Of a DNA stretch of 64,000 bases, positions 516 to 52,403 are shown piece by piece. The DNA is from a virus, in IMG/VR virus record IMGVR_UViG_3300042878_002532, positions 49,294 to 113,293 of that record; one strand, given 5' to 3'. The notes below the pieces were generated by a model, which saw only the letters and a program-made list of their open reading frames with translations, was not told the origin of the DNA and searched no databases. The translations under genes were made by a program, and so were the position numbers. Positions within the stretch are counted from its first letter, which is position 1; each line of letters opens with the position of its first letter.

Positions 516-875
516 TTATAGGCTAAAATCTTCAAAGCCTTTTATGTTTTCATCATCTCTATGTCTAGCATCATGTTCTGAGTGAGATGATTCTGGTCCA
601 CCTAATAGTGGTTTTTCTTCGTGATGTTCTTCTTCATGCTCTTCTGAATGACCTGCAAGAAAGTTGAATACTTCTTCTACATCATCCTTAGATGTTGCAA
701 TGTGGTCTAATGCCCAGTTGTGGCCGTTTGTAAGCATAGCGTCAACTTCTGCTTCATCCATTTCTAACATCTCATCAACTAATCTTTTGATTGTTTTAAG
801 ATTACCAAAGAACATATAATTTTGAGGACCACCATCATGGTCTTCTTTAAATAGTTTAAATTTTTTGATTTCCAT
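516..875 (-). CDS. Hypothetical, probably virion-internal protein with a His/Glu-rich tail
   Basis: Likely start MEIKKFKLFKE (capsid-targeting-like peptide); contains HSEEHEEEHHEE and ends IKGFEDFSL. Confidence 0.6.
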   Translation of the reverse strand: MEIKKFKLFKEDHDGGPQNYMFFGNLKTIKRLVDEMLEMDEAEVDAMLTNGHNWALDHIATSKDDVEEVFNFLAGHSEEHEEEHHEEKPLLGGPESSHSEHDARHRDDENIKGFEDFSL

Positions 876-886
876 ATCGTTTACTT

Positions 887-2047
887 TTATTTTAGAATGT
901 TTACTACTTCTGGGTAGTATTTGCATATATTTTGATTCTTTCCTTCATAAGGAATGGCTGAAAGTGCGTATCTCATAGCATTTAATCTTCCAATCTTTTT
1001 GTCGTTTGAGTTTATTATAACCCAAGGTGTAGTCCTACTTGATGTAAGGTTGAACATCTGATTTTTGTAGTGTCCGATTATCTCCCATTTATCAACAACT
1101 TTGGCGTCATTCGGTGAGAACTTCCAGTATTTCAAAGGACTTTGTTGTCTTAAATCGAATCTTTTTAGTTGTTTTTCTTTGGTAATAGAGAACCAGAACT
1201 TAATAAGGTGAAGACCTTGTTTCTTTATCATTTTCTCTTCCCAATCTACCACTTTTTCCATGAAGTCTTTGTACTGATCTTCTGTACAATAACCCATTGC
1301 TGGTTCTACTACTGCTCTGTTGTACCAAGATCTATCAAAGAATACTATTTCTCCTTCTTTAGGCATGTGTGCCTCATATCTAGCGAACCAGTTTTCTTTC
1401 TCTTCTGGAGTTGGAAGTCCTAAAGCAACTACTCTGAATCCTTTTGGATTTAAGTATTCGACGAATCTTTTTATTGTAGAACCTTTTCCTGCAGAGTCTC
1501 GTCCTTCGAATACTATAGCTATTCTCTTACCGTTCTTCAGAACCCATTCTTGAAGTTTCATAAGCTCTACTTGTATCTGATATTTCTCTGATTCGTATTC
1601 TTTTCTAGTAAGTATAGATCTCTCACCTTCGAACTCATCAAAGTGTTGAGCCTGAGCACCAGTTTTAATAACTGATATCCTGTTATCTATAGATTTGGCG
1701 AAGTCATCAAACTGTTTTCTTATGTTACTTTTGGTATCTCTTCTTTTGAGTTCCATAAGTTGATTTATCTTCCTAAGAAGTGTGTCGATGTTTAAGTCTT
1801 GTACGACCTCTGGAGTGAACTCGTTGTTAAGTTCTCTCATTATTATATCTACTTCGATTTTTTCAAAGGATTTGTATTCTACTTTGTTTGTTTGAAAGTT
1901 GTAGACAATATTGTCCAATATAGAACTTTTATACTCTCCAAGTCTTGTCAGTATGTTCCTTTTTATCTGTTCGATATTTTCGGGATCCATCTTGTCAATC
2001 CTAAGCTCTTCTTTTATAAAATCCAAGAATTTACGTAAATTCTTCAT
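887..2047 (-). CDS. ppk2: Polyphosphate kinase 2 with an approximately 150-aa N-terminal extension
   Basis: FEGRDSAGKG (Walker A), FDRSWYNR and QSPLKYWKFS motifs. Likely start MKNLRKFLDFIKEE at 2047, just downstream of a TATATA element. Confidence 0.92.
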   Translation of the reverse strand: MKNLRKFLDFIKEELRIDKMDPENIEQIKRNILTRLGEYKSSILDNIVYNFQTNKVEYKSFEKIEVDIIMRELNNEFTPEVVQDLNIDTLLRKINQLMELKRRDTKSNIRKQFDDFAKSIDNRISVIKTGAQAQHFDEFEGERSILTRKEYESEKYQIQVELMKLQEWVLKNGKRIAIVFEGRDSAGKGSTIKRFVEYLNPKGFRVVALGLPTPEEKENWFARYEAHMPKEGEIVFFDRSWYNRAVVEPAMGYCTEDQYKDFMEKVVDWEEKMIKKQGLHLIKFWFSITKEKQLKRFDLRQQSPLKYWKFSPNDAKVVDKWEIIGHYKNQMFNLTSSRTTPWVIINSNDKKIGRLNAMRYALSAIPYEGKNQNICKYYPEVVNILK

Positions 2048-2067
2048 ATATTTAGAATATTTTCTTT

Positions 2068-2082
2068 TATATATTAAAAGTG
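2068..2082 (-). promoter_or_regulatory. Putative late promoter (CACTTTTAATATATA)
   Basis: Identical 15-mer at 36486-36500; the same TATATA core lies upstream of most virion genes. Confidence 0.6.
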
Positions 2083-2087
2083 AAAAG

Positions 2088-2990
2088 CTAAAGTTTTTTC
2101 TCAAATAGATAAAGGTCGTATAAAGTATTTCCTTTTACGTTCTTTATACTTTTAAGAACTTGTCCGGTAACAGAATCAAGCACTTTGAATACTCCTATTT
2201 GTTGATTTTTATCAGTCTGAATTTTCACAGTATTTCCTGGTTGACCCAAAGCCCCTAATACTGCAACATATTTGTTTCCATATACACTTTTTAAAAACGA
2301 TACTCTTAAAGTATTTGTATCTTTAATGTTGTTTATATAAGCGTTATCCATTACTTTTGTTAAATCTAACTGACTTTCAGTTTCTTTTACTACTATGGTC
2401 GCGAATTTTCTTTCTTCACCACCTAAAGTAATTTCTTCTCTGTTCTGAATTTTGTTTTGGTTTACAAGGTTTTGTTGGTTTCTTCTAATCTCACTAAAAT
2501 CTGCTTTAGCTATTATACCACCTCTCATACCTTTATCATTCATATTATAACCTGCAGGGGCTAATCTGTAGAACGATCCAGTAAAAGTCATAGAAAGTAT
2601 TCTATCTGTTCTAAAAAGTCTCCAGATCTTGTTTATGTGTCTTTTCTGAGACACCGACCATCCGTTTAGATGCCAACCTCTCAATAAAGTTTTGCCTTTT
2701 GAAGACCTCCCAATCACCATTGGGTATATAACTCGCTCATGGCCAGCAAAATGCGTATCTTCTTCTCCTTTGTAGTTGAGTAGGAAGATCATTCCGTATT
2801 TGATTGCCTTTATCATAGTCTGCTCGTTGTACTTGATAGGTTCGTTGATAGGTATATTGGCGATGTCTTTTACATTCTTCAATGAAAATCTAGGTATGAA
2901 CTCATTGTCCTCTATAAGTTCGTATCGTTCTTTAACGACGAATTCTACAGGCTTTGTATTGTAATATGCTTTTGTTTGCGCTAGGTTCAT
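2088..2990 (-). CDS. WYL-domain-like protein
   Basis: Y..E....ERVIYP..IG...LLRGW...WRLFRTDRI matches the WYL-domain pattern. Confidence 0.6.
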   Translation of the reverse strand: MNLAQTKAYYNTKPVEFVVKERYELIEDNEFIPRFSLKNVKDIANIPINEPIKYNEQTMIKAIKYGMIFLLNYKGEEDTHFAGHERVIYPMVIGRSSKGKTLLRGWHLNGWSVSQKRHINKIWRLFRTDRILSMTFTGSFYRLAPAGYNMNDKGMRGGIIAKADFSEIRRNQQNLVNQNKIQNREEITLGGEERKFATIVVKETESQLDLTKVMDNAYINNIKDTNTLRVSFLKSVYGNKYVAVLGALGQPGNTVKIQTDKNQQIGVFKVLDSVTGQVLKSIKNVKGNTLYDLYLFEKKL

Positions 2991-3041
2991 AAAGTATATA
3001 TTTAATTATATTCTATATATTAAATGTGAATGACGCAAAAT

Positions 3042-3077
3042 AAAAAAGCGAGGTCACATTTGATGTGCCTCGCTTTT
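3042..3077. terminator. Intrinsic terminator hairpin
   Basis: AAAAAAGCGAGGtCACATttgATGTGCCTCGCTTTT. Confidence 0.7.
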
Positions 3078-3107
3078 CCAACATTCTGTTGTAACCTTCT
3101 GTGGTGA

Positions 3108-5918: not shown

Positions 5919-5919
5919 C

Positions 5920-6540
5920 TTATTTATTGCTTTGATTTTTCAAAAAATCTAATTCCTCTTGTGTTATTTTACTCATTCCGTGTTTACTAATCTTATCTAA
6001 GATTGAATCTACATCGAAACGGTCTTCGTTTTCTTCTACTATTCTTTCAATCTCCGTAGTTTCTTTCTTCATCATTAGGTTGTTCAGTTCCGCTTCTGGG
6101 TTTACACTTTCAAAATCTTTTAACTTAGATTCTAATTCCTCTCTAGAGATTGTCACACCCAATACTTCTACAACATCATCAATCTGTTTACCATATTGTT
6201 CATGTATATTACTTATTATATTTTCATTTAACTTTTTATCGATTGTCTCAGATGTATAGATACATTTATTTTCTTTGAAAATACAAACAATACTTTTATC
6301 CATAAGATAAACTACGTTTACAATATTGTAGTCTTTCAGTTTGGTATCTAACATTACTGTGTGATTTACCCTACTAACAAATACCGCTTGACCTTTTTTA
6401 ATATTAGATAATATCTCTTCGAATTGTAATATCATATCTTTCAGAAGCTTTTGGTCTTTGAAATGTTCTTTTATTTTGTCTACAATCTTCGCATATAGGA
6501 AGCCTAATATAAACATAAGTGTTAACGTCATTATACTCAT
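5920..6540 (-). CDS. Membrane-anchored protein with a C-terminal DUF6576-like motif
   Basis: N-terminal transmembrane helix; VDSILDKISKHGMSKITQEELDFL. Confidence 0.65.
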   Translation of the reverse strand: MSIMTLTLMFILGFLYAKIVDKIKEHFKDQKLLKDMILQFEEILSNIKKGQAVFVSRVNHTVMLDTKLKDYNIVNVVYLMDKSIVCIFKENKCIYTSETIDKKLNENIISNIHEQYGKQIDDVVEVLGVTISREELESKLKDFESVNPEAELNNLMMKKETTEIERIVEENEDRFDVDSILDKISKHGMSKITQEELDFLKNQSNK

Positions 6541-7727
6541 AGTGTATTATATATATTTTTTCTGATTTTGATTAGTATTTCATTGACAAAAGATTCATCT
6601 ACTTTGTCTGGAAGGTTTGAGTTCGCGAACAGCTCGTCGATTTCTACGATTTCTGCCTCTACTTGATCAATAAGAGTCTGTAGGTCAATCTTTCCTTTTC
6701 TGATGTCGATTAGTTCTTGAGCATTTTCTCTACGAACGTTGATACCAAGACCCAATGCGATTTCTCTTGCCATATCCATAAGTCTTCGGGAGTGCATCAT
6801 GTTCTTACCGTCGATTTTTTGACCGTGAGATTTAACATCAACCCATCTTGCATCATTTTTATTTACTAACCAATCTTCATAAGACTTATAATCTTTACAG
6901 TGTTCGGAATAACCATCTTTATTATAAACAATATTACAGATTGGAGTTTCATCTTTTGGAATAGAAGAAAGTCTAAGAGCATTTGACTCAGCAACGTTAT
7001 CACCTTCACCAGTCTTTACAAGTCCTTTATAACCAAATCCCATTGAGTGACCTTCTTCTTTTCTCCATGCTTTAGCTTTTTCCCTCAAGTCTTCTGGAAT
7101 CCTTTCATTAAAACAGTTGTTAGCATCTGTATCAAAATAAACAGCATATGAATCTCTAGCATTTGGTACATTTACAACTCCACAGAACTTTTCTTCAAAC
7201 CCCTTATCAGAGTTCCATTTTTTCCAAGGAATAGATTTTGGTCCTTCAATCACATAAACAAAGTCGAGTACATCTTTACGAGTTACTTTATCTTTTTCCC
7301 AGTTTTGTTTTTTGTTTTGACCTTTTGCTTTTTGGATTTGCATTTTACCATAACCACCAAAAGATTTGGCACACACTTTGGTGATGAATTTATCTCTGTT
7401 ATCTAAGATAAGGTCGAAGATAGGATCTTTATAGATGATACAATCTTCTGGTGTGTTTAGAAGTTCTAATACGGTTGGATTATTGCTAGAAAGTAGTTGT
7501 AGAAATCTTTTGATTTCATAGATTACGGTATCATTTGTATCGTCGTTGATTTGTTCTTTGTAGTTGAATCCAAAGATGTCTTCTTGTGATTGAATGAATA
7601 CACCTGCGTAGTCTGTATCGGATGTTTCAATGTTTGTTCCATATGCATGTGATCCTCTAATAACGAGTAGTAGTGGTTTTGCGTTTGGAGACTTTTCTTC
7701 GATGAATCTAAATAGTTCTTCTTTCAT
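6537..7727 (-). CDS. Nucleotidyltransferase (Pol-beta superfamily, YcgL/RlaP-like)
   Basis: RGSHAYGTNIETSDTDY (GS...DxD), NNPTVLELL and DGKNMMHSRRL motifs. Confidence 0.8.
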   Translation of the reverse strand: MKEELFRFIEEKSPNAKPLLLVIRGSHAYGTNIETSDTDYAGVFIQSQEDIFGFNYKEQINDDTNDTVIYEIKRFLQLLSSNNPTVLELLNTPEDCIIYKDPIFDLILDNRDKFITKVCAKSFGGYGKMQIQKAKGQNKKQNWEKDKVTRKDVLDFVYVIEGPKSIPWKKWNSDKGFEEKFCGVVNVPNARDSYAVYFDTDANNCFNERIPEDLREKAKAWRKEEGHSMGFGYKGLVKTGEGDNVAESNALRLSSIPKDETPICNIVYNKDGYSEHCKDYKSYEDWLVNKNDARWVDVKSHGQKIDGKNMMHSRRLMDMAREIALGLGINVRRENAQELIDIRKGKIDLQTLIDQVEAEIVEIDELFANSNLPDKVDESFVNEILIKIRKNIYNTL

Positions 7728-10335: not shown

Positions 10336-10367
10336 AAAAAAAGTCCTTCATTTGAAGGACTTTTTTT
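10336..10367. terminator. Bidirectional terminator
   Basis: AAAAAAAGTCCTTCA-tt-TGAAGGACTTTTTTT. Confidence 0.8.
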
Positions 10368-10635
10368 ATGATATTATTTTAATAATATTTTCTAAGGAAA
10401 AACCATCTAATGGTTTGCCACCATTTTTAAGGTAGTCTCCATAGATGTTGTTATAGTCATCTATAGTATAGAACTTTGAATCTAAGTCACAAAATATAAC
10501 TGTAGTATCGTGTGCATTCACCGTTTTATTCTGAAGTCCTGTCTCTCCGTATCCTGGTCCCATAGGTCCAATCAGTTCGGTTCCGTTTACTTCTTCTTTT
10601 ATGAAATCTTCAAATCTTTTAATCATCATCCCCAT
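10366..10635 (-). CDS. Small protein with a capsid-targeting-like N-terminus
   Basis: MGMMIKRFEDFIKEE. Confidence 0.65.
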   Translation of the reverse strand: MGMMIKRFEDFIKEEVNGTELIGPMGPGYGETGLQNKTVNAHDTTVIFCDLDSKFYTIDDYNNIYGDYLKNGGKPLDGFSLENIIKIIS

Positions 10636-23410: not shown

Positions 23411-24394
23411 ATGGCCAAAATAGATAAAGTGGAAAAATTCTTAAAAGAAGAAAAACCAAAGAAAATAAAAAATCTTGAAGTAGGTTTTGACATAGATTCT
23501 TTTGAAAAAGAAGAAGATACGGATACTCTTGGATTTAGATCAGAGTTTGAACCAATCGCTAAAGGTAAAGAAAAAACTCTTAAAAAAGAAATACAAGTTA
23601 CTACACCAGGATTAAAAAAATCTATCAAAAAGTTTGAGGATTTCAAGATTTCTATTTCTATTGATGAAGTAGAACCAGAAGAAGGTGTTCTTATGGGTGG
23701 TTTAACACCTAATGATGATGAAACTTGTTCAGATTGTGAATCTAATCCATGTGGGTGTGGATGTTCTGATTGTGATTGTGATCCTTGCGAATGTGGTGTT
23801 GGTGAAGAAGATGTTGCAAAGTTTTCTAACTTTAATGATGTCATTGGAGACTTATTTTCAGAGAGTTTAAAGTATCATTTGAAAAATAATAAACCAATCA
23901 CTGAAAACATATTTAGACCAGGTTCTGAGGCTTTCTATGATGTTCTTAAAGAAGCTAGAACACATTTTGATTCTAATAGAGTAAATCTAACGGGATTGGA
24001 TAAAGATTTGTTTGAGTCTACTGAAATAGGAAAGTTTGCTAAGTTCAATGGTGAGATAGTTCCTTTGGATCTTCCAATGGAAACGATTGAAGAAATGAAT
24101 GAGGCCGAATACAAAGGTAGAGAAGTTGAGTTGAATCATCCAATGAGAGGTGGTACTAAGAAGTATCATGTTTATGTTAAGAATCCTAAAACAGGTAATG
24201 TTAAAAAGATTGCGTTTGGTGATGTTCACGGTGGATTGACCGCAAAGGTTAGTGATCCTAAGGCTAGAAAGTCTTTTGCTGCTAGGCACAAATGTGATAT
24301 GAAGAAAGATAAGACTAAGGCCGGATATTGGGCTTGTAGAATAAACAAATACGGACATCTTTGGGGTGGAAAAACTTATCCTGGATACTGGTAA
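23411..24394 (+). CDS. Putative head-associated polyprotein with a Cys-rich cluster and a C-terminal DUF6321-like domain
   Basis: CSDCESNPCGCGCSDCDCDPCEC; VYVKNPKTGNVKKIAFGD...ARKSFAARHKC...AGYWAC. Confidence 0.65.
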   Translation: MAKIDKVEKFLKEEKPKKIKNLEVGFDIDSFEKEEDTDTLGFRSEFEPIAKGKEKTLKKEIQVTTPGLKKSIKKFEDFKISISIDEVEPEEGVLMGGLTPNDDETCSDCESNPCGCGCSDCDCDPCECGVGEEDVAKFSNFNDVIGDLFSESLKYHLKNNKPITENIFRPGSEAFYDVLKEARTHFDSNRVNLTGLDKDLFESTEIGKFAKFNGEIVPLDLPMETIEEMNEAEYKGREVELNHPMRGGTKKYHVYVKNPKTGNVKKIAFGDVHGGLTAKVSDPKARKSFAARHKCDMKKDKTKAGYWACRINKYGHLWGGKTYPGYW

Positions 24395-32477: not shown

Positions 32478-33020
32478 TTAAAAGGAGGTTATTTTTTTAG
32501 AAGAATCTTGCATTTCTTTTTTTATTTCCTCCATTTTCTTTTTTTGTTCTGCGGTTGCAGTCAATAGGGCTTTTTTTAAATCGACAATCTCCTGAGTCTT
32601 TATCTTTTGATTAGATTTTATGTCGTTTACGGTCTTTAATTTGGCGGAAGTGTCTACTTTCTGACTTGATAGTTGCTTTAAATCTTCTTCGTTTTTATAA
32701 AGATCATCATTGTACTTCATCAACTCATCTTGAACATACTTTATTTTCATTTGAAGGTTCATCATTCGTGTGTACTCTTCTATGAATGGATTATTCAAAA
32801 ACTTTTTATTTATTTCCTCTATCTTTTTATTTAATAACTCATTGTCTTTGTCACTTTTTAGATTCATGAAAGCTTTATCAAGTTCTGCCTTTACTGCAGG
32901 AAAATCTTTTAAACTTTTTTCAAGGTTATTAGTTTCTTCTTTGGCAAGTTTTACGTCAGGCTCATCAGTTATTTCGACTTCCACGTTTTCAAAACGTTTA
33001 AAATTCTTTAGATATTTCAT
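32478..33020 (-). CDS. Coiled-coil protein with a capsid-targeting-like N-terminus
   Basis: MKYLKNFKRFE followed by heptad-rich sequence. Confidence 0.7.
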   Translation of the reverse strand: MKYLKNFKRFENVEVEITDEPDVKLAKEETNNLEKSLKDFPAVKAELDKAFMNLKSDKDNELLNKKIEEINKKFLNNPFIEEYTRMMNLQMKIKYVQDELMKYNDDLYKNEEDLKQLSSQKVDTSAKLKTVNDIKSNQKIKTQEIVDLKKALLTATAEQKKKMEEIKKEMQDSSKKITSF

Positions 33021-33037: not shown

Positions 33038-36000
33038 TTAAGCTCTGGTGATTTCAACTTTGCTCGCGTCACTTCCGTTAATCATATTTACGATCGTGGA
33101 AATTCCCGCCACTTTGGCTATCTGCTTGTTTAGTTTTTCGACCTTCTCTTTGTCTTTACCTATTTCTTTTCCAAATTCTATCGCGTTGAAAAGAACGTTT
33201 TTGCCATCCACCTCTTTTGTGATCCAATATGCTCCGATCACTTCTATTTTTTCGGTGGTGATTTTTTTCTGACCGTCCGCACTCATCATTCCGACTTCTA
33301 TAGTACCTGGTGATAATAACAATTTCAAGAAATCATCTCTTTTAACTTTGGTGAAATGTGAAAGTGCTTTAGATTCTTTTACCTGTAAATCACCACCTAC
33401 TAAATTATTAGCATGTCCTAAAACAGAGGCGTCTAGAAGAGGATTGAATGTGCCAAAGTTTTTACTACACTGCATATATGCATATGCACCATCTATCTCT
33501 TGAATGTAGAATGCTCTCTGTGCCTCGTTGCCATCTTTGTCTTTTATCTTCAATACAAAAAACGTGTATTTTACAGGATAAACGGCTTTTTTACCATCGT
33601 CACTAACCGCGTTTTCACTTTTTGTGGCCTTTATCTTAGTAGCGCTTGCTTCTATCCCTTCTACAATCTCTTGGTTATTTTCTTCATCTTTTTCCAAAAA
33701 TGTTCCTCCTTTGTTGATTGCAGTACCTATCTTCTCGTCCGGTTTTCCAAAGTATTCGTCTAAAAGCTCTGCTTGTTTTCCTCTTCCTGAATCACCATAT
33801 CCACTTTTAGATTTGTAAAGACTATCACCATCTAACATATCGGTCATGAACTTTCTCAGATTGGCACCACCGTTTGGTCTGATTTCGTTTCCTACTCTTA
33901 GGTTTGTCTTCGGGTCGAAGATGAATTCGTATTTTCTATCTTTCATTAAATCCAAAACTGCATTTTCCCAAACATCGAATATTTTGTCGTTTCTATAAGG
34001 ACCTTTGTCTCCAAACGAAGTATATTCTGCTTCGGTACTTACACCAGGTCCGGTACTTCTTTTTGTTATGTATTTTGCCATATAAAGCTTGTATGCTCTG
34101 TTGAACAATTTCAATATCTCGATTATTGGATCGTATCCGTCTATTATGAATCCGTCTTTGTCTTTTTCTAACTTTTCGAAGTTTGCTCTAACTTTCTCAA
34201 ACTCTGTTTTATCCATTGTGTAGTCTTTTACATTTCTACACTTTCTCTCAAAGTAGTCTTGTATCCTTTCGACTCTAGACATACTAGATCTTGGATCACT
34301 TGCACTTGTACTTCCTTGAGTTTCTGTTGACTCTGGAGTCTCTTCTGTAGTCACTGGTTCTTCTGCTTCTTTTATGTAAGACATGAATCTGTCGAATTTA
34401 AGCAATCTTCCTACAGGTTTACTACTGCTCTTCAATGCTTCGTTTAATTCCAACATAATAACACGCATTCCAGCTTGTATCTCCATTAATTTTGAGATAT
34501 AAACACTTTCGTTTACCGATTCGTCAAGCTTGTCCAGGTCGGCTTTCATTTTATCTATGTTTGCTAGTATCTTCGCTTTTTTTGGGTTATCTTTTTTAAG
34601 TTCCAATGCTTTTTTAGTCGCACTTTCTATATCTTTTATAAGCTCGTCCTTTTTATATTTGGTCTCTCTTGCCTTTTGGTCTACATAAGGTGAAAGATCT
34701 GATTTTGAAACTCCAAAAGAAATTTTCGAATCGTCGTACACAACAGATAGTGTATCTTCCTTTGGAAGTTTTCCACCTTCTGCGTCGTCTTTAGTTGCCC
34801 ACTTTTTATCATCGCCCATTTTCATTACATGAGTCTTCGAAACCAAAGTCACAACTCTCTTATCGCCTTTTCCGTCTGTGTATATGTATTTTTGACCAAC
34901 GTTGTATTTGCTTTCCTTTTTCTTTTCCTCGCTTTGCTCTGAATACTCTGTCTTAACATTGACAATTGGATTTTTCATCAAAACCTTTAATGTCTCAACA
35001 AACTTTTTAAGCGGATCTGCCAATTCTCCTAAACCACCATAAAGATTCTTCCCATCAAACTGTAAAGCTCTCTTTGCGAATCTTGCGATTTTTTCCGCAA
35101 CAACTTCAATCTTACCACCATTTGGATTTTTCTCACTTCTTGGCATTAGATATTCGTAAGACTCTTTATATAAAGAATCTTTTTCTTGAATCGTTTGCTT
35201 TTTGTCACCTACCAAATACCTATTTATATTGTCGTATAAGGCCATTATGAGTGTATCGTTTTTACCATCTTTATGTTTGGCTAATAGTATTCTGACAAAC
35301 TCTTCACTTATTGGTAGCTTTTGGTCTTTTGTATCTATAAGAGATGTTATATCTTTTGTTAATTTTCCAAATGCTTGAGTCAAATGATCTTCTTCTTTAT
35401 AGACATTATTTCCATCTACACTATTTCCTTGTTTCTCTAATACTAATTCAAGTCCTGCTTTTAAAGTTATCTTTTCCTTTTTAGTGTTAAGTTTCGTAGC
35501 AGCAGCGAGTGTTGCTTTCAATTCTAGTTCGTTTTTGGCAAAAATTTTATCAATATTTGCACTTGAAAAAGTAACTCCTTTGTTTATATCGGAGTTGTTC
35601 AGTATCGATGTTAATGTGTCACCTGCTACAGTTACATAAGGAACTGGTTTCTTTGCATCTGCCTCTTCTTTTTTGTTGAAGTTTAAAAGATTTACACTTT
35701 TGTAATTTTTTAAGATATAGTAAAGTGCACTTAGATTCTTAATCATGGTTGGAAGGCTTTCTTCTAACTTTGAATATTTATCCTCATTCTCTTCAGAATC
35801 TTCTTCACTTTGACCCTGTCCTTGACCCTGTCCTTGACCTTGTGCTTGACCCTGTCCTTGACCTTGTGCTTGACCTTGTGCTTGACCTTGTGCTTGACCC
35901 TGTGCTTGACCCTGTGCTTCTATTTTTTTTAGTTCCTCTAAGAAACCCTCAAGTTCTTCAAGTAATTTAGCCTTTACTGTAGTATCAATATCGGTTTCTT

Positions 36001-36463
36001 TCATCTCTTCTGTTGCTGTGATTGCACTTTCTGTAAGATTTATTATAATATTAGTCTCAGAACCATTTTCAACGGCCTCGTTCAATGCAAAAAAGAATGA
36101 ATACAAAATACTTTTTGCATAAAGTTTCTTATCTTCAGGATTCATGTTGTATGCAAATCCAGATGCTGCTATCCTATCAAATTCACCTTCTAGTCTTGAG
36201 ATTAATGGCTTTATTCTTCTAAGGTTGTTAGCGACTTTTGCTTTTCTAACAAGGTGATTTAAAAACCTACCTACTAATGAATCATGCCATCCAATATCAT
36301 TCGCCATTGGTCCTGATCCGTGGTTGCTGGCATATTCACTTTCTTTTATAAGTTCTTGATATAGTTCATTTCCTGATATTTTTGCGTCTCTTAGAAATTC
36401 AGATTTTTCGTCTAATCTTTTGGCTTCTCTTAAAAAGTCATTTCTTTTAATAAGATATTTCAT
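33038..36463 (-). CDS. Large putative internal-head or ejection protein
   Basis: MKYLIKRNDFLRE start, several (I/L/V)xE sites (LIKE, VNE, LNE, YIKE), a QG repeat and a LysM-like YVTVAGDTL segment; late element at 36486-36500. Confidence 0.65.
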   Translation of the reverse strand: MKYLIKRNDFLREAKRLDEKSEFLRDAKISGNELYQELIKESEYASNHGSGPMANDIGWHDSLVGRFLNHLVRKAKVANNLRRIKPLISRLEGEFDRIAASGFAYNMNPEDKKLYAKSILYSFFFALNEAVENGSETNIIINLTESAITATEEMKETDIDTTVKAKLLEELEGFLEELKKIEAQGQAQGQAQGQAQGQAQGQGQGQAQGQGQGQGQGQSEEDSEENEDKYSKLEESLPTMIKNLSALYYILKNYKSVNLLNFNKKEEADAKKPVPYVTVAGDTLTSILNNSDINKGVTFSSANIDKIFAKNELELKATLAAATKLNTKKEKITLKAGLELVLEKQGNSVDGNNVYKEEDHLTQAFGKLTKDITSLIDTKDQKLPISEEFVRILLAKHKDGKNDTLIMALYDNINRYLVGDKKQTIQEKDSLYKESYEYLMPRSEKNPNGGKIEVVAEKIARFAKRALQFDGKNLYGGLGELADPLKKFVETLKVLMKNPIVNVKTEYSEQSEEKKKESKYNVGQKYIYTDGKGDKRVVTLVSKTHVMKMGDDKKWATKDDAEGGKLPKEDTLSVVYDDSKISFGVSKSDLSPYVDQKARETKYKKDELIKDIESATKKALELKKDNPKKAKILANIDKMKADLDKLDESVNESVYISKLMEIQAGMRVIMLELNEALKSSSKPVGRLLKFDRFMSYIKEAEEPVTTEETPESTETQGSTSASDPRSSMSRVERIQDYFERKCRNVKDYTMDKTEFEKVRANFEKLEKDKDGFIIDGYDPIIEILKLFNRAYKLYMAKYITKRSTGPGVSTEAEYTSFGDKGPYRNDKIFDVWENAVLDLMKDRKYEFIFDPKTNLRVGNEIRPNGGANLRKFMTDMLDGDSLYKSKSGYGDSGRGKQAELLDEYFGKPDEKIGTAINKGGTFLEKDEENNQEIVEGIEASATKIKATKSENAVSDDGKKAVYPVKYTFFVLKIKDKDGNEAQRAFYIQEIDGAYAYMQCSKNFGTFNPLLDASVLGHANNLVGGDLQVKESKALSHFTKVKRDDFLKLLLSPGTIEVGMMSADGQKKITTEKIEVIGAYWITKEVDGKNVLFNAIEFGKEIGKDKEKVEKLNKQIAKVAGISTIVNMINGSDASKVEITRA
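35810..35918 (-). repeat. Coding (QAQG/QG)n tandem repeat
   Basis: 12-bp and 6-bp units, tgtgcttgacc(c/t) and tgtccttgacc. Confidence 0.85.
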
Positions 36464-40144: not shown

Positions 40145-42298
40145 ATGGCTGTAAAAGCAAACGAAACCGAAAGGCAGATGATTTTTACCACCAAATTTGT
40201 CGATGAGGCAACTGATAAGATAAACGACGGTATAGTCGTCAAAAGATATCAGAATCCTTGGATGAAGAGCGAAGTCGGTATCAGAAGAGCAGGCGTCTCT
40301 TTTAGAATGACTCCCGAAGAACAACAAGAATACGTAAGATGTGCATTAGATATACATTACTTTACTGAGAAGTATTGTAAGACAAAAAGAGAAGATGGTT
40401 CTGTTGGTTCGATAACTCTTAGAGATTACCAAAAAGAAATCTTAGACAACTTTGTCAACAACAGATTCAATATACTTATGGCATCGAGACAGGTTGGTAA
40501 AACCGTGTCTTCTGCTATTTTCATACTACATACGATATTATTCAGTAATGATAAGAACTGTATGATTGTTGCCAACAAAGGTGATACTGCAATTGAGATT
40601 GTGGATAAAGTAAAATCGATATACACACTTCTTCCATTCTTCTTAAAACCAGGTGTAAAGACTTGGAATCAAAAATCTCTTACATTTGAGAATGGTTGTA
40701 GAATAAAAACATCTGCAAGATCTAAGACTCCTGCGATTGGTTTTACCATTGACGTTCTTTACTTAGATGAGTTTGCACATATTCCATCGAATATCATCGA
40801 ACCATACTATACCGCTGCGTTTCCGACCGTTTCTGCGGTACAAAACTCAAAGATTATCATTACATCAACACCAAATGGTATGAACTTATTTCATAGGTTA
40901 TTAACAGATGCTGAAAGACCTGATGGTGATCCAATGAAGAATAACTACAAACCTATGAGGGTTTACTGGTATCAGGTTCCTGGTAGGTTTGTGACTTATA
41001 TAAGATTGAATCCACACAAACTTTATGAATATGGTGTTACAAAAGACGACATATTTAAATTAGTACAAGATACGTTTGGTGAAGTCACAAAGACAAAGAT
41101 TGAGTTTAACTTAGACCAGCAGAAAGATGTTATTCATGTATTTAACAATGAAAAGTGTACAGATGAAGAAGTTAAATCACTTCATTTTATAGACAAAAAT
41201 GGATTTGAGACTTCTATATTAGCCATTGCAGAGATGACAACGTGGAAAGACGAAGCTGTGAAGGATATTGGTGGAGAAGATGCGTTCAATCAAGAGTATG
41301 GACTTAGATTTATTAACTCAAGTAAGTCTCTTTTGAATGAGGCCATAATAGATGAACTTTTAAAATCTAAAAAGAACTATATCTATGAAGAAATATTTGA
41401 GTTTAAGAACAAACTGAGGTTTATGTATGAAGACTTAAAATGGATTGATGATGATGAAGTACATATGCCATTAAAAAGAAAAGAATATAAATATGTTCTT
41501 TCTGTCGATATATCCGAAGGTTTAGGACAAGATTACTCTATCATAAACATATTTAAAGTTTCTGAAAAACCTGTAGATTTAATAGAAACACAAAAACACA
41601 AATACAAGGCCATTACTGATTTCTTCAGACTTGAACAGGTTGGATTATACAGAAACAACTTTGTTTCTGTCAAACAATTAGCAGAACTTCTTTATCTTCT
41701 TGTTTTTGAATATTTGAATCCTGATAATGTAAGAGTAGTTCTTGAGTTAAACAACTATGGAAACACACTATTGGCGGAGATGCCGCACGTTTTTGATGGT
41801 AACAACAACTATGGTTCATCGGTGTTTGTTAGGTATAAACATAGAATAGATTCGACTGAAGAAAAACTTGGACTAAAAGTTGGTGAGAATAAAAACATGA
41901 TGGTTAAAGACTATCAAGAACTTATGTATAGTAGAGGATTTCATATTACAAATGAGGATAATATTAGAGAAATAACAACTTTTGTTAAGCATGTCACTAC
42001 CGCAGGTAACGTAAGATATGCAGCAGACGTAGGACATGATGATACGGTTATGACCGTGGTCAATGCCACTTCTATTTTTGCCAAATCAGAATTCAAAGAG
42101 ATGGTCGAAGAGTGGGGTAATAAATATAGTCCTAAAGAGTTTATGGCTTATGTCAACGACTGTATGAAAAACATGGATTATGTACAAGGAATTGACTATA
42201 GTCAGGTTCTTAGTGTTAGAAGACAGGTTATGTCACGAAATAAAGTGTCTAATGTAGGATCTAATCCGAATGGAATAAACTGGTTCAATAGACCTTAA
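40145..42298 (+). CDS. terL: Terminase large subunit (T4 gp17-like)
   Basis: LRDYQ, ASRQVGKT (Walker A), YLDEFAH (Walker B), TSTPNG, VDISEGLGQDYS and GHDDTVM. Confidence 0.95.
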   Translation: MAVKANETERQMIFTTKFVDEATDKINDGIVVKRYQNPWMKSEVGIRRAGVSFRMTPEEQQEYVRCALDIHYFTEKYCKTKREDGSVGSITLRDYQKEILDNFVNNRFNILMASRQVGKTVSSAIFILHTILFSNDKNCMIVANKGDTAIEIVDKVKSIYTLLPFFLKPGVKTWNQKSLTFENGCRIKTSARSKTPAIGFTIDVLYLDEFAHIPSNIIEPYYTAAFPTVSAVQNSKIIITSTPNGMNLFHRLLTDAERPDGDPMKNNYKPMRVYWYQVPGRFVTYIRLNPHKLYEYGVTKDDIFKLVQDTFGEVTKTKIEFNLDQQKDVIHVFNNEKCTDEEVKSLHFIDKNGFETSILAIAEMTTWKDEAVKDIGGEDAFNQEYGLRFINSSKSLLNEAIIDELLKSKKNYIYEEIFEFKNKLRFMYEDLKWIDDDEVHMPLKRKEYKYVLSVDISEGLGQDYSIINIFKVSEKPVDLIETQKHKYKAITDFFRLEQVGLYRNNFVSVKQLAELLYLLVFEYLNPDNVRVVLELNNYGNTLLAEMPHVFDGNNNYGSSVFVRYKHRIDSTEEKLGLKVGENKNMMVKDYQELMYSRGFHITNEDNIREITTFVKHVTTAGNVRYAADVGHDDTVMTVVNATSIFAKSEFKEMVEEWGNKYSPKEFMAYVNDCMKNMDYVQGIDYSQVLSVRRQVMSRNKVSNVGSNPNGINWFNRP

Positions 42299-42649: not shown

Positions 42650-43183
42650 TTATATACTAGATCCTTGAATAGTTGTTTCTGTTTTGTTAACAACGTCTAC
42701 TATTGTACTTTTGATATCTTGCTCTTTTGCCCATTCTACGAATTTAGGCAAGTGTGCTTCTCTATCGTCGTAGAACTTCAATTCTTTCACTCCTAATTTT
42801 TTGATTGTTCTTTCTAATAAGTTGCATTTGAAAATAAATGTGTCACTTCCCCAGTTTAAGTGAACTTCATCAAATTCTATGTTGTTGTCTCTTAGAATCT
42901 TTTCAACGCCTTCTCTCATACCGGGAACTTTGTCTAATCTACCAGTTGCTAAAATTACATAAGCGTCTGGGTCAGCTATTGCTTCCAGATATTTTTGGTA
43001 AGTCCATTCGTTTCTTGGAATGTTGAATATCTCATCATCGATAGATTCTGGTTTACCCCACCAACCTCTATGTGGCCAATCTGTTCCTGTTTTTTCTTTC
43101 CAAACTACTTTTCCATCTTCTGGAAGTGGAGTGTGAAATAATGTGTCGTCAAAATCAAAACAGATAAGTCTTTTATACTGCAT
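42650..43183 (-). CDS. HAD-family phosphatase (RNA-repair 'Swiss Army Knife'-type)
   Basis: FDFDDTLFHTP, LATGR, TFIFK and FYDDR; TATATTTG at 43207-43214. Confidence 0.75.
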   Translation of the reverse strand: MQYKRLICFDFDDTLFHTPLPEDGKVVWKEKTGTDWPHRGWWGKPESIDDEIFNIPRNEWTYQKYLEAIADPDAYVILATGRLDKVPGMREGVEKILRDNNIEFDEVHLNWGSDTFIFKCNLLERTIKKLGVKELKFYDDREAHLPKFVEWAKEQDIKSTIVDVVNKTETTIQGSSI

Positions 43184-44209: not shown

Positions 44210-44908
44210 ATGAAACATATCAGACAATTTGAAAGTTTTAGAGTTCAGAAAAACAGACAAGAAATAATCAGCGAAGCTGTTCTTCAAGTGAACGATATCT
44301 ATAAGGTTAAAACTATGATCGATATTCCACAATCTTTAATCAATTCTTATGTTAAGAAAGTTAAAGATACTACAGGAAAAAATCTTCGTCAGTTTTTCGG
44401 TGATGTTGACATCGCGGAAGAGATTGTAAAATACATAACTCTTAACAATACAGACGTTGAGAAGATTCCTGGAAACGCTTTAATGGGCGGTGCACAAGGA
44501 CAAGTTCAAGGACAGGGTCAAGGACAGGTTCAAGTTCAAACTGAAGGTGAGGCACAAACTCAAGGACAGGAACAAGCTCAACCACAAGCTCAACCACAGG
44601 GTCAAGGTCAAGAACAAGCTCAACCACAAGGACAGGGTCAAGAACAAGCTCAACCACAAGCACAATCACAAGAAGGTGATTTTGAAGAGCCACAAGCTCA
44701 ACCACAAGGACAAGGACAGGAACAAGCTCAACCACAGGCACAAGGACAAGCTCAAACTGGTCAAGGACAAGCTCAAGGACAGGGTCAAGGACAAGCTCAA
44801 GGACAGGGTCAAGGACAAGGACAGGGACAACCACAAGGACAGGGTCAAGCTCAAGGACAAGGACAGGGTCAAGAAGAAGATGAAGATGAAGAAGAACTTC
44901 CAGCTTAA
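44210..44908 (+). CDS. Gln/Gly-rich protein with a capsid-targeting-like N-terminus
   Basis: MKHIRQFES...IISE, an approximately 125-aa Q-x dipeptide repeat and an acidic C-terminus. Confidence 0.75.
   Translation: MKHIRQFESFRVQKNRQEIISEAVLQVNDIYKVKTMIDIPQSLINSYVKKVKDTTGKNLRQFFGDVDIAEEIVKYITLNNTDVEKIPGNALMGGAQGQVQGQGQGQVQVQTEGEAQTQGQEQAQPQAQPQGQGQEQAQPQGQGQEQAQPQAQSQEGDFEEPQAQPQGQGQEQAQPQAQGQAQTGQGQAQGQGQGQAQGQGQGQGQGQPQGQGQAQGQGQGQEEDEDEEELPA
44492..44873 (+). repeat. Coding QG/QA/QP repeat
   Basis: caaggacag and caagctcaaccacaa units. Confidence 0.85.
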
Positions 44909-44979: not shown

Positions 44980-45627
44980 ATGAAAAAAATCATTACATGG
45001 GAAGAGTTTAATGAATCTTATAATAAACCAAGAGTAGGTGGTAAAAAGAGATGGTCTGTTAAATATAAAAAAACAATAGACTGTAATAATCCTAAAGGTT
45101 TTTCACAAAAACAATATTGTAAGAGAAAAAGAAAAGGTGGTAATTATAAGTCTGTTAAAGAAAACTTTGGTCTATCTGACCAAGAAATAGAAAATAAGAT
45201 AATGGAAGTATGGAAAGTAGATCCATATGAGTTTAAAGACTACATTACTTCATCTATGGATCATGGTGACTTATATGGAAGTTGTAATTTGACTTTTGTT
45301 CTTTGGTATCCTTATCCAGATTCTAATGTCGAACCATGTGCCATATTTATGTTAGAAGATAACGAATGGAAGAAAGGACCTTGGTATGACAATATGGATG
45401 CTATATTGAAAAGTGAAAGATATGAAGTTGGTATAGAAGCTTGGGTTCCGGATGTTGGTGGTAATCATGAAAAGATAGAGAAGTTTTACAACTACGCAAA
45501 CAGAGTTCTACAGGAAGCGGATATACCATACATTGCATCTTATCCAGATGTTCGACACGAAGGAAAGATACTTTTAGAGTATGGCTATACCTGGGGTTAT
45601 AAAACAAAATTCATTGGCGACGAATAA
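44980..45627 (+). CDS. Putative internal-head protein
   Basis: MKKIITWEEFNE; a basic KKTIDCNNPKGFSQKQYC module, then a VKE site and a second domain. Confidence 0.65.
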   Translation: MKKIITWEEFNESYNKPRVGGKKRWSVKYKKTIDCNNPKGFSQKQYCKRKRKGGNYKSVKENFGLSDQEIENKIMEVWKVDPYEFKDYITSSMDHGDLYGSCNLTFVLWYPYPDSNVEPCAIFMLEDNEWKKGPWYDNMDAILKSERYEVGIEAWVPDVGGNHEKIEKFYNYANRVLQEADIPYIASYPDVRHEGKILLEYGYTWGYKTKFIGDE

Positions 45628-45655: not shown

Positions 45656-46306
45656 ATGAGATACCTAAAAACGTTCGAAAGCCACAGCAGTAAAGACATT
45701 CTTATTGTTGTTGATGTTCAAAAATCATTCAAAAAATTCTTCAATGAGATTTATCTTCATGAGTTGAAAAAGTATTGTAATGAGTTCAGTAAGGTATATC
45801 AAATCTGGGACAACCACGTAGATGGAAAGAACGTCGATAAAGACTATCTATATGATGAAGATCCTGAAATACCTGTTCATAAAGATCTTTATCACTTTCC
45901 TAACCAAACTGACTTGATTGAGAAAAGATACAACTATGACGTTGATGCAGACTTCTATAAAAAAGTTCTTACACCGGAAACCTATGAAGAAGTTAAGACT
46001 AAAGAAGATGCAAACGAATTGAAAAAGGGAGATTTCTTTCCTACAGAAGAAGGAACTCTTATTATATATGTCGGAAATAACCACAAATGGTATCATATGC
46101 CAAAGAAACTTCACGAACTTTTTACAGAAGTTGCAGAGGCACAAAATATGAATGAAGGATTGAGTGAGGTTAAAGATGTGATTCTTGTAGGTGGTGCAGA
46201 TGGAGAATGTCTTACAGATGTTGAAACTGCAGCAGAGGCAATGGGTGTAAAACTGAGACTTAATCACAAATATATCTATAGTGCTAGCCACTGTCCAATA
46301 AAATAA
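45656..46306 (+). CDS. Isochorismatase/nicotinamidase-family cysteine hydrolase with a capsid-targeting-like N-terminus
   Basis: MRYLKTFES; ILIVVDVQ (Asp), IEK (Lys) and LVGGADGEC (Cys). Confidence 0.7.
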   Translation: MRYLKTFESHSSKDILIVVDVQKSFKKFFNEIYLHELKKYCNEFSKVYQIWDNHVDGKNVDKDYLYDEDPEIPVHKDLYHFPNQTDLIEKRYNYDVDADFYKKVLTPETYEEVKTKEDANELKKGDFFPTEEGTLIIYVGNNHKWYHMPKKLHELFTEVAEAQNMNEGLSEVKDVILVGGADGECLTDVETAAEAMGVKLRLNHKYIYSASHCPIK

Positions 46307-46315: not shown

Positions 46316-46696
46316 ATGAGACTTATATTAGAGTTTGATAAATATAGTGTTATTGAAGATGTTGTTGCTGAGATGTCTAAGATATTTCCTCATGTGAAAA
46401 TGAAAGGAAGTGTTCTATATGCTTCTTCTATTTTAGACAAAGGTGGAAATCCTCTTGTGAGAATAGACTCAAAACAACCATTGATGGCACTTTTGATTCA
46501 ATTTATTGGTGATCATATTGTTATAAAATCATTTGTAAACTCTGTAAGAGAACCTAACTTCTCAAAAAGATTTATGGATGGTCTTTCAAATGTTTTAGAA
46601 CCAAAATATACCATAGTAGTTGATCAAGATGTGAGTCAAGGATATTGGGACCATATAATCGAAAAGTATCCTCAATTTAATTGGATTAAAAAATAG
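46316..46696 (+). CDS. Hypothetical protein (possibly GNAT-like)
   Basis: MRLILEFDKY start; DVSQGYWDHI weakly resembles a GNAT C-terminal motif. Confidence 0.55.
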   Translation: MRLILEFDKYSVIEDVVAEMSKIFPHVKMKGSVLYASSILDKGGNPLVRIDSKQPLMALLIQFIGDHIVIKSFVNSVREPNFSKRFMDGLSNVLEPKYTIVVDQDVSQGYWDHIIEKYPQFNWIKK

Positions 46697-48323: not shown

Positions 48324-48339
48324 TTTAATATATATTGAT

Positions 48340-50837: not shown

Positions 50838-50891
50838 TATTTATTTATTGATAATTTTTAAAAATCCCCTTTATGGGGATTTTTTGTTTTA

Positions 50892-50919
50892 TAAACTTTT
50901 TCATGTTCGATGTCTATAA
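50892..50919 (+). promoter_or_regulatory. Putative middle-class promoter TAAAC-N18-TATAA
   Basis: Lies upstream of the late sigma gene. Confidence 0.6.
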
Positions 50920-50969
50920 CATGAAAGCATGAAAATCCTTTATGGATACCAAAAAATAAATGCTTATTA

Positions 50970-51335
50970 ATGTACTTAAATAATAGAGAACTTTACATAG
51001 AATTAGTAGTCAGCAAAGCACAGGGAAGACTTACAAGGCCCGCTCAAAAAATGCTAGAGCTTTTAGCAAAGAAAACAATCAAAAAAATGAGATATTGGTC
51101 GAATGACGACAAGATGGACTGTTACCAAAGTGGACTTCTATATGTATTTCAAAACTGGTATAACTTCAACGAAGAGAAATCAGTAAATGCCTTCGCTTAT
51201 TTCACCGAAATCTTTAAAAGGGGAATAGCCAAAGGATATAACGATCTTTATAAAAAGAAAGGTGACAACGAACATCAAATAAGACTTATTTCCATAGAAG
51301 GATCTAATGACGGAATGGGTCTACACTCTTTATAG
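50970..51335 (+). CDS. Late-transcription sigma factor (T4 gp55-like)
   Basis: YLNNREL...NFNEEKSVNAFAYFTE matches the gp55-type pattern YVNNKE...F..EKS.N.FAY.T. Confidence 0.8.
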   Translation: MYLNNRELYIELVVSKAQGRLTRPAQKMLELLAKKTIKKMRYWSNDDKMDCYQSGLLYVFQNWYNFNEEKSVNAFAYFTEIFKRGIAKGYNDLYKKKGDNEHQIRLISIEGSNDGMGLHSL

Positions 51336-51485
51336 ATGATATCAACAACAAAAATATTTACATACGACATAGTCGCCGCTCCTAGTTTTGGAATGGCTAC
51401 TATGTCTTTTAATATGACTATAAATCCTTCGAGGAGAACTCTTAGAAGAAGCAAGATCAAGAAGGTATTTCTACAATCTTTATAG
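51336..51485 (+). CDS. Unannotated 49-aa peptide resembling the Asp-bearing strand of the prohead protease
   Basis: MISTTKIFTYDIVAAPSFGMATMSFNMTINPSRRTLRRSKIKKVFLQSL versus KKLFTYDIVADPGFASAKMS in the protease gene at 60879. Confidence 0.6.
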   Translation: MISTTKIFTYDIVAAPSFGMATMSFNMTINPSRRTLRRSKIKKVFLQSL

Positions 51486-51657
51486 TTATCTCTATCTCTA
51501 CATTCTTATCTTTGAATTCTGCTAATTTTGCGTCAACAAAATCTGATGGATTGTGAAGGCTCACATGATTTTTCTTAATACGGGTTTCAATACCAAAATT
51601 GTCTTTTGCTTCAAATACTCGTCCTTGGTATTTTTCTGTGTTGCTTGATGAAATCAT
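51457..51657 (-). CDS. Small hypothetical protein
   Basis: MISSSNTEKYQG...; TAAATTTG at 51702-51709 upstream. Confidence 0.55.
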   Translation of the reverse strand: MISSSNTEKYQGRVFEAKDNFGIETRIKKNHVSLHNPSDFVDAKLAEFKDKNVEIEITIKIVEIPS

Positions 51658-51719
51658 AATATCTATTTTTATGCTAATATATGTATTATTTATTACATCC
51701 ACAAATTTATATATACTAT

Positions 51720-52403
51720 ATGGAGAGAATAGATAGATTTAATGTATTTGAGGCCAAAATTGTTCCTTTGAACAGAATGCCCAGAAGTAGCCGAAAACCA
51801 GAGAGATCCGGAAGATCCGGAAGATTACTTACTGATGAACAAAAATACTATGATGAAAACCAAATAGAAGATACAAGTGGTCCAAAACCCGCTATGTTAT
51901 TTACAGATGTTGTAGGATCTTCTAAAATGTGGTCCGACGATCCACAAACTATGAGCATACAACTCGATAAACATTTTAAGATTATGGATAATCTTGCTAG
52001 AAAGTATGGTGGTTTTGTGGTTAAAACAATCGGTGACGCCTTTATGGTATATTTTCCAAAAAACGAAAAGTCATTAGAAAATGCTGTTGATTTTGCGGTA
52101 GAGGTAATCAAAATTGAAGAGCTTCCACTTAGAATAGGAATATGCTCTGGTAATATGACTGCCAAAAAATGTAGAATACAGAATGTTGAGCTTGTAGACT
52201 TTTTTGGAGATGTTGTGAACACTGCATCAAGAATGGAGTCCAAAGTTGCAGAGCAGGGTGGTATTGCATTTACCTCTGTTGATAATATTGATAATCAAAT
52301 GGAGTCTATTTCAAAAAAATACAAATTGGTTAAGATAACTGGTAAAGGTATTCCAGATTTAAAAGGTGTGAAAGTCGAATTTGCTTATAAGTTAAAAGTA
52401 TAA
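51720..52403 (+). CDS. Class III nucleotidyl (adenylate) cyclase with a capsid-targeting-like N-terminus
   Basis: FTDVVGS, VKTIGDAFM, LRIGI and DFFGDVVNTASR; start MERIDRFNVFE just behind a TATATA element. Confidence 0.9.
   Translation: MERIDRFNVFEAKIVPLNRMPRSSRKPERSGRSGRLLTDEQKYYDENQIEDTSGPKPAMLFTDVVGSSKMWSDDPQTMSIQLDKHFKIMDNLARKYGGFVVKTIGDAFMVYFPKNEKSLENAVDFAVEVIKIEELPLRIGICSGNMTAKKCRIQNVELVDFFGDVVNTASRMESKVAEQGGIAFTSVDNIDNQMESISKKYKLVKITGKGIPDLKGVKVEFAYKLKV

Follow-up and report, generated by a model that had tools for sequence, protein, structure and literature searches.

The viral record IMGVR_UViG_3300042878_002532 is a single contig of 113,293 bp, and the window analysed here, to which positions refer unless the contig is named, is its right-hand 64 kb; the contig has 33.6% G+C and no terminal repeat. 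Encoded in it are proteins that share a short N-terminal tag, otherwise unrelated to one another, and this tag resembles the capsid targeting sequence (CTS) of phage T4. The nearest public record is LR745206.1, the complete 634,780 bp genome of an uncultured phage, with 77% DNA identity to the contig in the tail sheath region and 81% protein identity in the head protease; further matching records are LR756502, LR756504 and LR756501/3 (636-735 kb). The four largest genomes of Al-Shayeb et al. (2020; PMC7162821) make up part of the Mahaphage clade, whose hosts are predicted to be Bacteroidetes. Because its nearest records are huge genomes of this clade, the contig is, by sequence affinity, a piece of a huge, Mahaphage-type bacterial virus.

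A sequence-only reading of the window had quoted 12 tagged N-termini, all of which are present where it placed them. They belong to the following proteins, TATATATA being a TATATA-type promoter element to which we return below.

516-875, minus strand: protein of 119 aa and unknown function, starting with the Met at 875; tag MEIKKFKLFKE, ending F-K-E at residue 11
887-2047, minus strand: tagged polyphosphate kinase 2 (PPK2; Pfam PF03976, 1e-75), with a TATATATA element 20 nt upstream
10366-10626, minus strand: tagged protein of 86 aa, MIKRFEDFIKEE
23411-24394, plus strand: tagged protein of 327 aa, MAKIDKVEKFLKEE, whose start resembles the T4 gp24 propeptide MAKINELLRE
24707-25090, plus strand: tagged protein of 127 aa, MKHLKKFNE
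32478-33020, minus strand: tagged protein of 180 aa, MKYLKNFKRFE; the LR745206 orthologue retains the tag
33038-36463, minus strand: tagged protein of 1141 aa, MKYLIKRNDFLRE, with L-R-E ending at residue 13; the gene adjoins the tail sheath gene
44210-44908, plus strand: tagged protein of 232 aa, MKHIRQFESF; the orthologue retains the tag
44980-45627, plus strand: tagged protein of 215 aa, MKKIITWEEFNES, with the promoter element 4 nt before the ATG
45656-46306, plus strand: tagged protein of 216 aa, M[RK]Y[LI]KTFES; its label as a cysteine hydrolase is unverified
46316-46696, plus strand: tagged protein of 126 aa, MRLILEFDKY
51720-52403, plus strand: tagged class III nucleotidyl cyclase (Pfam PF00211, 2e-21), MERIDRFNVFE

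For three of the 12 (875, 10626/10629 and 51720) the start is an internal Met of the longest open reading frame (ORF), and in the cyclase gene the promoter element stands 4 nt before the ATG, within the spurious 5' extension of the ORF.

The tag is real, and the earlier figure of about 12 proves to be an undercount. The tag core was captured, loosely, by [ILMV]xx[FYW]xx[FYWL] with its first position at residue 2-4 (an aliphatic residue, an aromatic three positions on, and an aromatic or Leu three further); expected counts were taken from the rate of the pattern at internal protein positions, and a column shuffle preserved the N-terminal composition at each position. In this contig 16 of the 125 first-ATG N-termini match, against 1.8 expected (P 4e-11) and 3.6 +/- 1.8 in the column shuffles, and 21 of 124 are tagged when a later Met is permitted as start. 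LR745206 has 116 tagged proteins in 924 (12.6 expected; column shuffles 30 +/- 5). The enrichment is 6-8 fold in two more distant Mahaphages, LR756501 (60/538 against 7.7 expected) and LR756500 (41/539 against 7.2 expected), the first 400 kb being taken of each, and across the clade the tagged share is 8-15% of genes. In LR756500 the tag takes the form M-K-[YF]-I-[KL]-E-Y-E-x-F-[IL]-x-E, and tagged genes stand there in runs of 7 and 5 adjacent genes (at 11.7-16 kb and about 313 kb). T-even phages have variable internal-protein (ip) loci, which these runs resemble.

The tag also emerges when no pattern is imposed. The sequence-only reading had proposed a genome-wide check of N-terminal motifs, and clustering of the N-termini of LR745206 in a reduced alphabet returned the tag as one single class, of 141 proteins; a second class, of 54 proteins, consists of signal peptides and membrane helices. 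The tag is not a Sec or lipoprotein signal peptide: it is amphipathic and charged, and signal-peptide-like N-termini cluster apart from it. Applied to T4, the same patterns retrieve the annotated internal virion proteins ipI, ipII and ipIII, together with gp61.1. As a negative control we used Tenacibaculum phage PTm1 (225 kb, 29.7% G+C, Bacteroidetes host), which has a T4-type head module but a different scaffold repeat; it shows no enrichment (6/300 against 4.1 expected), and clustering of its N-termini gave no class larger than 3. PTm1 was therefore rejected as a cultured, tag-bearing model relative.

The proteins that carry the tag are diverse. BLAST clustering of the 116 tagged proteins of LR745206, trimmed of 25 N-terminal residues, gives 112 clusters, and the tagged proteins span at least 15 unrelated, well-defined Pfam folds. 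Among these are NUDIX (two), SMODS-associated NUDIX, Acb1/2H phosphoesterase, T4-type RNA ligase (Rnl1), poly(A)/CCA-type nucleotidyltransferase (PolyA_pol), DHH, GNAT, methyltransferase, DEDD exonuclease, glycoside hydrolase 108 (GH108), histone-like Hc1, MazE-like, ankyrin, zinc protease and NFACT-R; in the window, Pfam identifies PPK2 and the class III cyclase. Untagged are DNA polymerase, helicase, clamp loader, RNase R, GS, ClpS, terminase, portal, sheath and tube, and likewise endolysin, the late sigma factor and ribosomal protein S21; GS, RNase R, ClpS and the clamp loader, which had been singled out earlier as lacking the tag, are genuine as well as untagged. Basic and aromatic N-terminal extensions have been described for the S21 of huge phages (PMC7162821); we considered whether these might be the tag and rejected the idea, the S21 genes of LR745206 and LR756501 being short and untagged. 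In LR745206 the median isoelectric point (pI) is 5.0 for tagged proteins and 5.5 for the rest, a pI above 9 is found in 7% and 17%, respectively, and Asp and Glu are overrepresented in the 20 residues that follow the tag. RNA-repair-type genes occur in the window (RlaP nucleotidyltransferase and HAD_SAK_1 phosphatase, at 6537-7727 and 42650-43183, both on the minus strand) and in the tagged set of LR745206 (Rnl1 ligase and CCA-type transferase); they point to a module for tRNA or RNA repair, part tagged and part untagged.

Of the three tagged enzymes claimed earlier, PPK2 and the cyclase stand, while the cysteine hydrolase does not have a Pfam match; its AlphaFold model is too poor to use (pLDDT 52.7), and the protein atlas gave a weak isochorismatase lead only. 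For PPK2 the comparison with cellular homologues that had been called for showed that cellular-looking homologues, aligned over the kinase domain only, are without the tag, and that relatives with the phage-type N-terminal extension often have tag-like starts. In the AlphaFold model of the window PPK2 (pLDDT 92) the tag is predicted as a separate helix at residues 2-16, with I-K-E ending at residue 13, followed by a low-confidence hinge (16-21), an extra folded domain (22-128) and the PPK2 domain (147-372). That extra domain, of about 105 confidently folded residues between tag and kinase, is common to other phage-like PPK2s and missing from those that align over the kinase domain only. Searches with the 216-aa protein and with the head protease were uninformative on cellular homologues because they returned close clade relatives only. 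Within the 216-aa family (120 homologues) the nine tag residues are nearly invariant and the next 4-5 variable, with insertions and deletions; the 86-aa family behaves alike, its tag being conserved among the 120 homologues listed and followed by variable residues, with start points that vary. Contigs of 400-660 kb encode these genes too. Between this contig and LR745206, orthologue pairs carry the tag in both genomes in ten cases and in one genome only in six. Many tagged proteins are small orphans without detectable family, so one could suppose that the shared N-terminus is a relic of common descent within one fast-evolving gene family; with 112 clusters from 116 proteins, at least 15 unrelated folds and untagged cellular-looking PPK2 homologues, we find this barely credible.

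Selection appears to act on the amino acids of the tag. Codon usage inside it is that of the genome, identical residues are encoded by different codons in 41% of cases in the tag and 47% elsewhere (ten orthologue pairs), and substitutions conserve chemistry (F/Y/W, I/L, K/R) and not nucleotides. All three findings speak against an RNA-level signal, and on this comparison of sequences the tag is selected at the protein level, not at the RNA level.

What the selected residues might do is suggested by T4, whose CTS is MKTYQEFIAE. Residues 4 and 7 of the T4 CTS serve targeting and residues 8 and 10 processing, the head protease gp21 cutting by the rule L/I-X-E (PMC9026906). The Mahaphage tag likewise has aromatics three apart at T4 positions 4 and 7, followed by I/L-x-Glu at the processing positions. 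The first of these positions is Y, F or W in 116/116 tagged proteins and the second F, Y, L or W, partly by construction of the pattern. One sub-type, exemplified by MIKKYNQFIKE, keeps all four T4 determinant positions, and a second, exemplified by MKYLKTYKIFES, ends in I-F-E. A signature derived from T4, [YFW]xx[FYW][ILV]xE, occurs at 5 N-termini of this contig (0.6 expected) and at 25 in LR745206 (2.6 expected; P 9e-17), as well as at 27 in LR756501 and 19 in LR756500 (first 400 kb of each). An [ILVMF]xE ending at residue 6-20 is present in 91/116 tagged (78%) against 279/808 untagged proteins (35%; P 3e-19), its end position peaking at residues 11-12 in the tagged set; for [IL]xE the figures are 69/116 and 166/808. 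The residue that follows the tag Glu is mostly S, E, N or A.

The window also encodes a T4-type head module and other structural genes.

26464-27087: tail tube
28476-32408: tail sheath
40145-42298: large terminase
50970-51335, plus strand: gp55-like late sigma factor (phrog_234, 4.5e-7), untagged, though weakly flagged by the scoring matrix
56176-57888, plus strand: gp20-type portal protein (phrog_213, 1.7e-56; BLASTP to T4 gp20, 3e-23)
60879-62981, plus strand: head maturation protease fused to a scaffold-like region, 700 residues (phrog_207, 1.6e-29)
61743-62213, plus strand: about 11 tandem 14-residue repeats within the preceding gene, unit AYSEYIAENLDKNI (TRF period 42, 9.7 copies)
63067-63999, plus strand: gp23-type major capsid protein, cut by the contig end

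The protease protein comprises a gp21-type domain (about residues 1-180), a helical linker, the repeats, an acidic stretch and a C-terminal domain. By tblastn it matched 711 phage records, many of them annotated as gp21 or prohead core protease, and hhalign aligned it with T4 gp21 (E 1.8e-4, probability 49%), placing His73/Ser128 on His85/Ser140, which we take to be the catalytic pair of the T4 enzyme. Its own start has L-I-V-E at residue 8; T4 gp21 has L-I-E at residue 9 (PMC9026906). At the N-terminus of the capsid protein, a propeptide-like stretch closes with a conserved S-I-N-E at residue 43; the I-N-E ending is shared by several tags. Directly 3' of the late sigma gene lies a 49-aa ORF (51336-51485, plus strand), in which the stretch KIFTYDIVAAPSF resembles residues 146-157 of the head protease (LFTYDIVADPGF). 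Outside the window, at contig 29575-29934 (plus strand), a hyper-charged 119-aa protein has a tag-like start, a basic tail and 11 [ILV]-x-E sites, a density (9 per 100 residues) unmatched elsewhere in the contig; its sequence makes it a candidate for a small protein of the prohead core or an internal protein, like T4 gp67 and gp68.

It is in the scaffold-like region that the tag signature recurs. Each repeat has an aromatic-x-x-aromatic-[ILV]-A-E signature with a cutting-type site, and its core, Y-S-E-Y-I-A-E, is a near match to the T4 CTS core Y-Q-E-F-I-A-E. The repeats are conserved in LR745206 and LR756501, and the protease-scaffold accounts for 11 of 19 internal signature matches in this contig, 11 of 58 in LR745206 and 14 of 42 in LR756501. 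Since internal matches concentrate there, we regard this as one motif in two places, the N-termini of unrelated proteins and the repeat unit of the scaffold; as a likeness of sequence, it is the strongest support for a role in targeting. A 1691-aa protein of LR756501 with seven signature matches was discarded as a false match, its 60-residue repeat being unrelated. Tag and scaffold repeat keep the same general pattern in LR756501 and LR756500, and co-variation of the two across Mahaphages is therefore uninformative. A complex prediction with the scaffold repeat region (residues 285-460) in two copies and the 86-aa tagged protein scored 0.00, which speaks neither for nor against binding.

With a head protease and a ClpS in the same phage, the tag could also be thought to mark proteins for regulated proteolysis and not for packaging, either through activation or timed removal by the head protease or as an N-degron for ClpS; the conserved Leu, Phe or Tyr and the protease-type sites in the tags would suit such a role. 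Yet no cut leaving Phe, Tyr or Leu at the new N-terminus is indicated, the conserved Glu sits after the aromatics, and the likeness to the scaffold repeats and to T4 residues 4 and 7 would be left unexplained, so that we consider this quite improbable.

Expression of the tagged genes can be compared with that of the structural genes through the promoter element. The genes for sheath, portal, protease and capsid protein have, in both the contig and LR745206, an element [AT]ATATATA at 19-36 nt upstream; TATATATA also precedes the terminase, the baseplate hub and other large structural genes, and the genes for DNA polymerase, clamp loader, RNase R, GS and the sigma factor itself do not have it. 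The earlier remark that most tagged genes follow a TATATA element holds, 8 of the 12 having TATATATA within 80 nt upstream, and in LR745206 it is found before 58% of tagged and 20% of untagged genes (odds ratio 5.4, P 7e-16). T4 late promoters (TATAAATA) are read by gp55, and because of this analogy we take TATATATA to be a late promoter, with the gp55-like sigma factor as its presumed reader. A second promoter-like motif, GACAATATATC or TATATCATGT, precedes replication- or RNA-type genes without TATATATA (upstream of 48274, clamp loader, minus strand, and of 60296, RNase R, minus strand, in the window, and of the DNA polymerase operon at contig 43421) and may represent an early or middle promoter class.

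Genome-wide in LR745206, the distance from the late-type element TAATATATA to the ATG clusters sharply at 4-5 nt and at 20-27 nt, with examples in the window upstream of 44980, 45656 and 51720. The shorter spacing would give leaderless or near-leaderless mRNAs if transcription began a few bases past the element, as in T4. This raises the question of whether the motif could be a nucleotide- or translation-level feature of late, near-leaderless mRNAs in an AT-rich genome: in LR745206, 45 of the 109 genes with the element within 12 nt of the ATG are tagged, and 40 of the 67 tagged genes with an element have it exactly 4-5 nt from the ATG. However, 59% of those close-promoter genes are untagged and 42% of tagged genes are without such a promoter; the codon usage of the tag is genomic, with synonymous divergence as elsewhere and chemistry kept in substitutions; and PTm1, whose GC content is 30% and whose host belongs to the same phylum, has no enrichment. 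A purely RNA-level origin thus seems very improbable, and we read the spacing bias, from the sequence, as that of a possible mobile cassette of late promoter plus tag.

A tag selected as protein could still address something other than the capsid. It might be a docking or oligomerisation helix for another phage structure or hub (an intracellular assembly body, for instance, or a chaperone or membrane patch); its resemblance to the scaffold repeats would in that case come down to the amphipathic-helix design that both have. With clients so numerous (up to 141/924) and so acidic, a cytoplasmic address fits better than co-packaging with DNA, and many clients are enzymes able to act in the cytoplasm. 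Against this, the T4 CTS and the scaffold repeats have in common with the tag a specific seven-residue signature that goes beyond amphipathicity, the tag ends in a head-protease cutting motif far above chance, and tagged genes have the promoter element of structural genes. We judge such a non-capsid address unlikely, although it deserves more weight than the other alternatives.

On balance, we think it probable that the tag is a T4-type CTS used on a very large scale, and that the tagged proteins, by analogy, probably end up inside the virus head. The comparison with the T4 CTS made in the sequence-only reading has gained in strength, with the T4 determinants kept, a gp21-type protease, a T4-type head module, the signature in the scaffold repeats and a late-type promoter. 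The tag would form an N-terminal amphipathic helix of 10-14 residues, whose two aromatics (T4 CTS positions 4 and 7) would dock the new protein onto the prohead scaffolding core, most plausibly onto the approximately 11 tag-like 14-residue repeats of the protease-scaffold fusion. The protease would then clip the tag at [ILVF]-x-Glu by the gp21-type rule, the mature protein would stay inside the head, and the cargo would presumably exit with the DNA at the next infection. Scaffold binding, cleavage after Glu, retention in the virion and ejection are steps that we infer. That delivery would precede the start of phage transcription is pure inference. The capsid-targeting interpretation put forward earlier thus stands as far as the sequence likeness is concerned, and for a system much larger than was claimed, while packaging, cleavage and early delivery keep their conditional form.

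Several observations weigh against this reading. Sequence matches of the protease to Pfam S77, to the PDB and, by BLASTP, to T4 gp21 are all lacking, and its link to that enzyme is weak because only hhalign and intermediate homologues supply it. Between 20 and 40% of tags are without a canonical I/L-x-E, the hydrolase family, for example, ending in T-F-E. Tagged proteins are acidic (median pI 5.0, 7% with a pI above 9), whereas T4 internal proteins are basic, and a tagged share of 8-15% of genes is far above the few percent estimated to be processed in T4- or phiKZ-like phages. The supposedly late element also precedes ClpS and a helicase, and because the tag is commonest (41%) where the element is only 4-5 nt from the ATG, there is a small chance of a role at the level of expression. 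Proteomics of this uncultured clade was not found in the literature searched.

The mechanism that we propose is itself the known one of T4, where the CTS is found on IPI, IPII, IPIII, Alt and gp24 and is removed by gp21 (Mullaney and Black, 1996; reviewed in PMC9026906, PMC5694885). Both systems have an N-terminal sequence of 10-19 residues on unrelated cargo, with an aromatic pair three apart and I/L-x-Glu, and the tag-bearing phage has a gp21-type protease alongside T4-type portal and capsid genes. They differ in scale, 8-15% of genes here against about 2-3% in T4, where CTS-like starts were counted with the same pattern, and in cargo, which is mostly acidic and includes many enzymes here and is small and basic in T4. 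The Mahaphage tag, moreover, has an added basic lead-in, M-K-x-[IL]-K, and several sub-types, and the scaffold, known here from sequence alone, is fused to the protease and made of tag-like repeats. Like this scaffold, T4 gp22, gp67 and gp68, which are degraded by gp21, are helical, highly charged, rich in I/L-x-E sites and encoded between portal and capsid; gp22 even has a CTS-like start (MLKEQLIAE), as does gp24 (MAKINELLRE). The fusion of scaffold and protease with regular 14-residue repeats sets the present protein apart from gp22, and BLASTP with T4 gp22 found no match in the contig or LR745206.

Inner-body or ejection proteins with propeptides cut by gp21-related proteases have also been reported for phiKZ, 201phi2-1 and SPN3US (PMC5694885, PMC9026906). 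These too are giant phages that load many proteins, processed after Glu by a diverged, self-cutting gp21 homologue, but their lineage is distinct from the Mahaphages, their sites are S/A-x-E, their propeptides mostly exceed 100 residues, no single short tag is used and 8-19 proteins are processed per phage. The phiKZ-type combination of S/A/G-x-E with long propeptides is not matched by a tag of 10-14 residues with a hydrophobic P3. In the cargo-loading peptides of encapsulins and the encapsulation peptides of microcompartments, a short amphipathic helix with a flexible linker likewise sends unrelated enzymes into a shell. Those shells are different ones and there is no homology, the encapsulin peptides are usually C-terminal, and neither kind is clipped by a maturation protease.

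The CTS has been suggested as a general route by which T4-like phages could load varied proteins (PMC9026906). In our case the observation is well supported, and the mechanism is plausible but unproven. Our literature searches (CTS, Mahaphage, jumbo phage) found nothing in print on its use at a scale of 8-15% of genes in the largest phages, on enzyme-rich counter-defence or RNA-repair cargo, or on a scaffold of tag repeats fused to the protease. If the reading is true, a simple rule would allow the virion cargo of uncultured phages to be predicted from sequence. The reading would also offer, in scaffold repeats of the same design, a concrete candidate for the core partner of the CTS, a partner that, to our knowledge, has never been identified, even for T4. 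The T4 CTS is already used to load foreign proteins into capsids, and the tag may serve the same purpose because it is short and modular.

A bolder and more tentative suggestion, which we hold to be possible although we would not yet bet on it, is that Mahaphage heads contain a 'starter proteome' of at least 100 proteins, the helix of each co-assembling with a scaffold that is in effect a polymer of tags and being released by one Glu cut. Its enzymes would act in the degradation of defence signals or in RNA repair (Acb1-like, NUDIX, DHH, RNA ligase, CCA-type transferase) and on nucleotides (cyclase, PPK2). Should the targeting reading be true, the DNA of the largest known phages would arrive together with a large and exchangeable enzyme set, acting before phage gene expression, and the huge gene content and counter-defence of these phages would have to be read differently.

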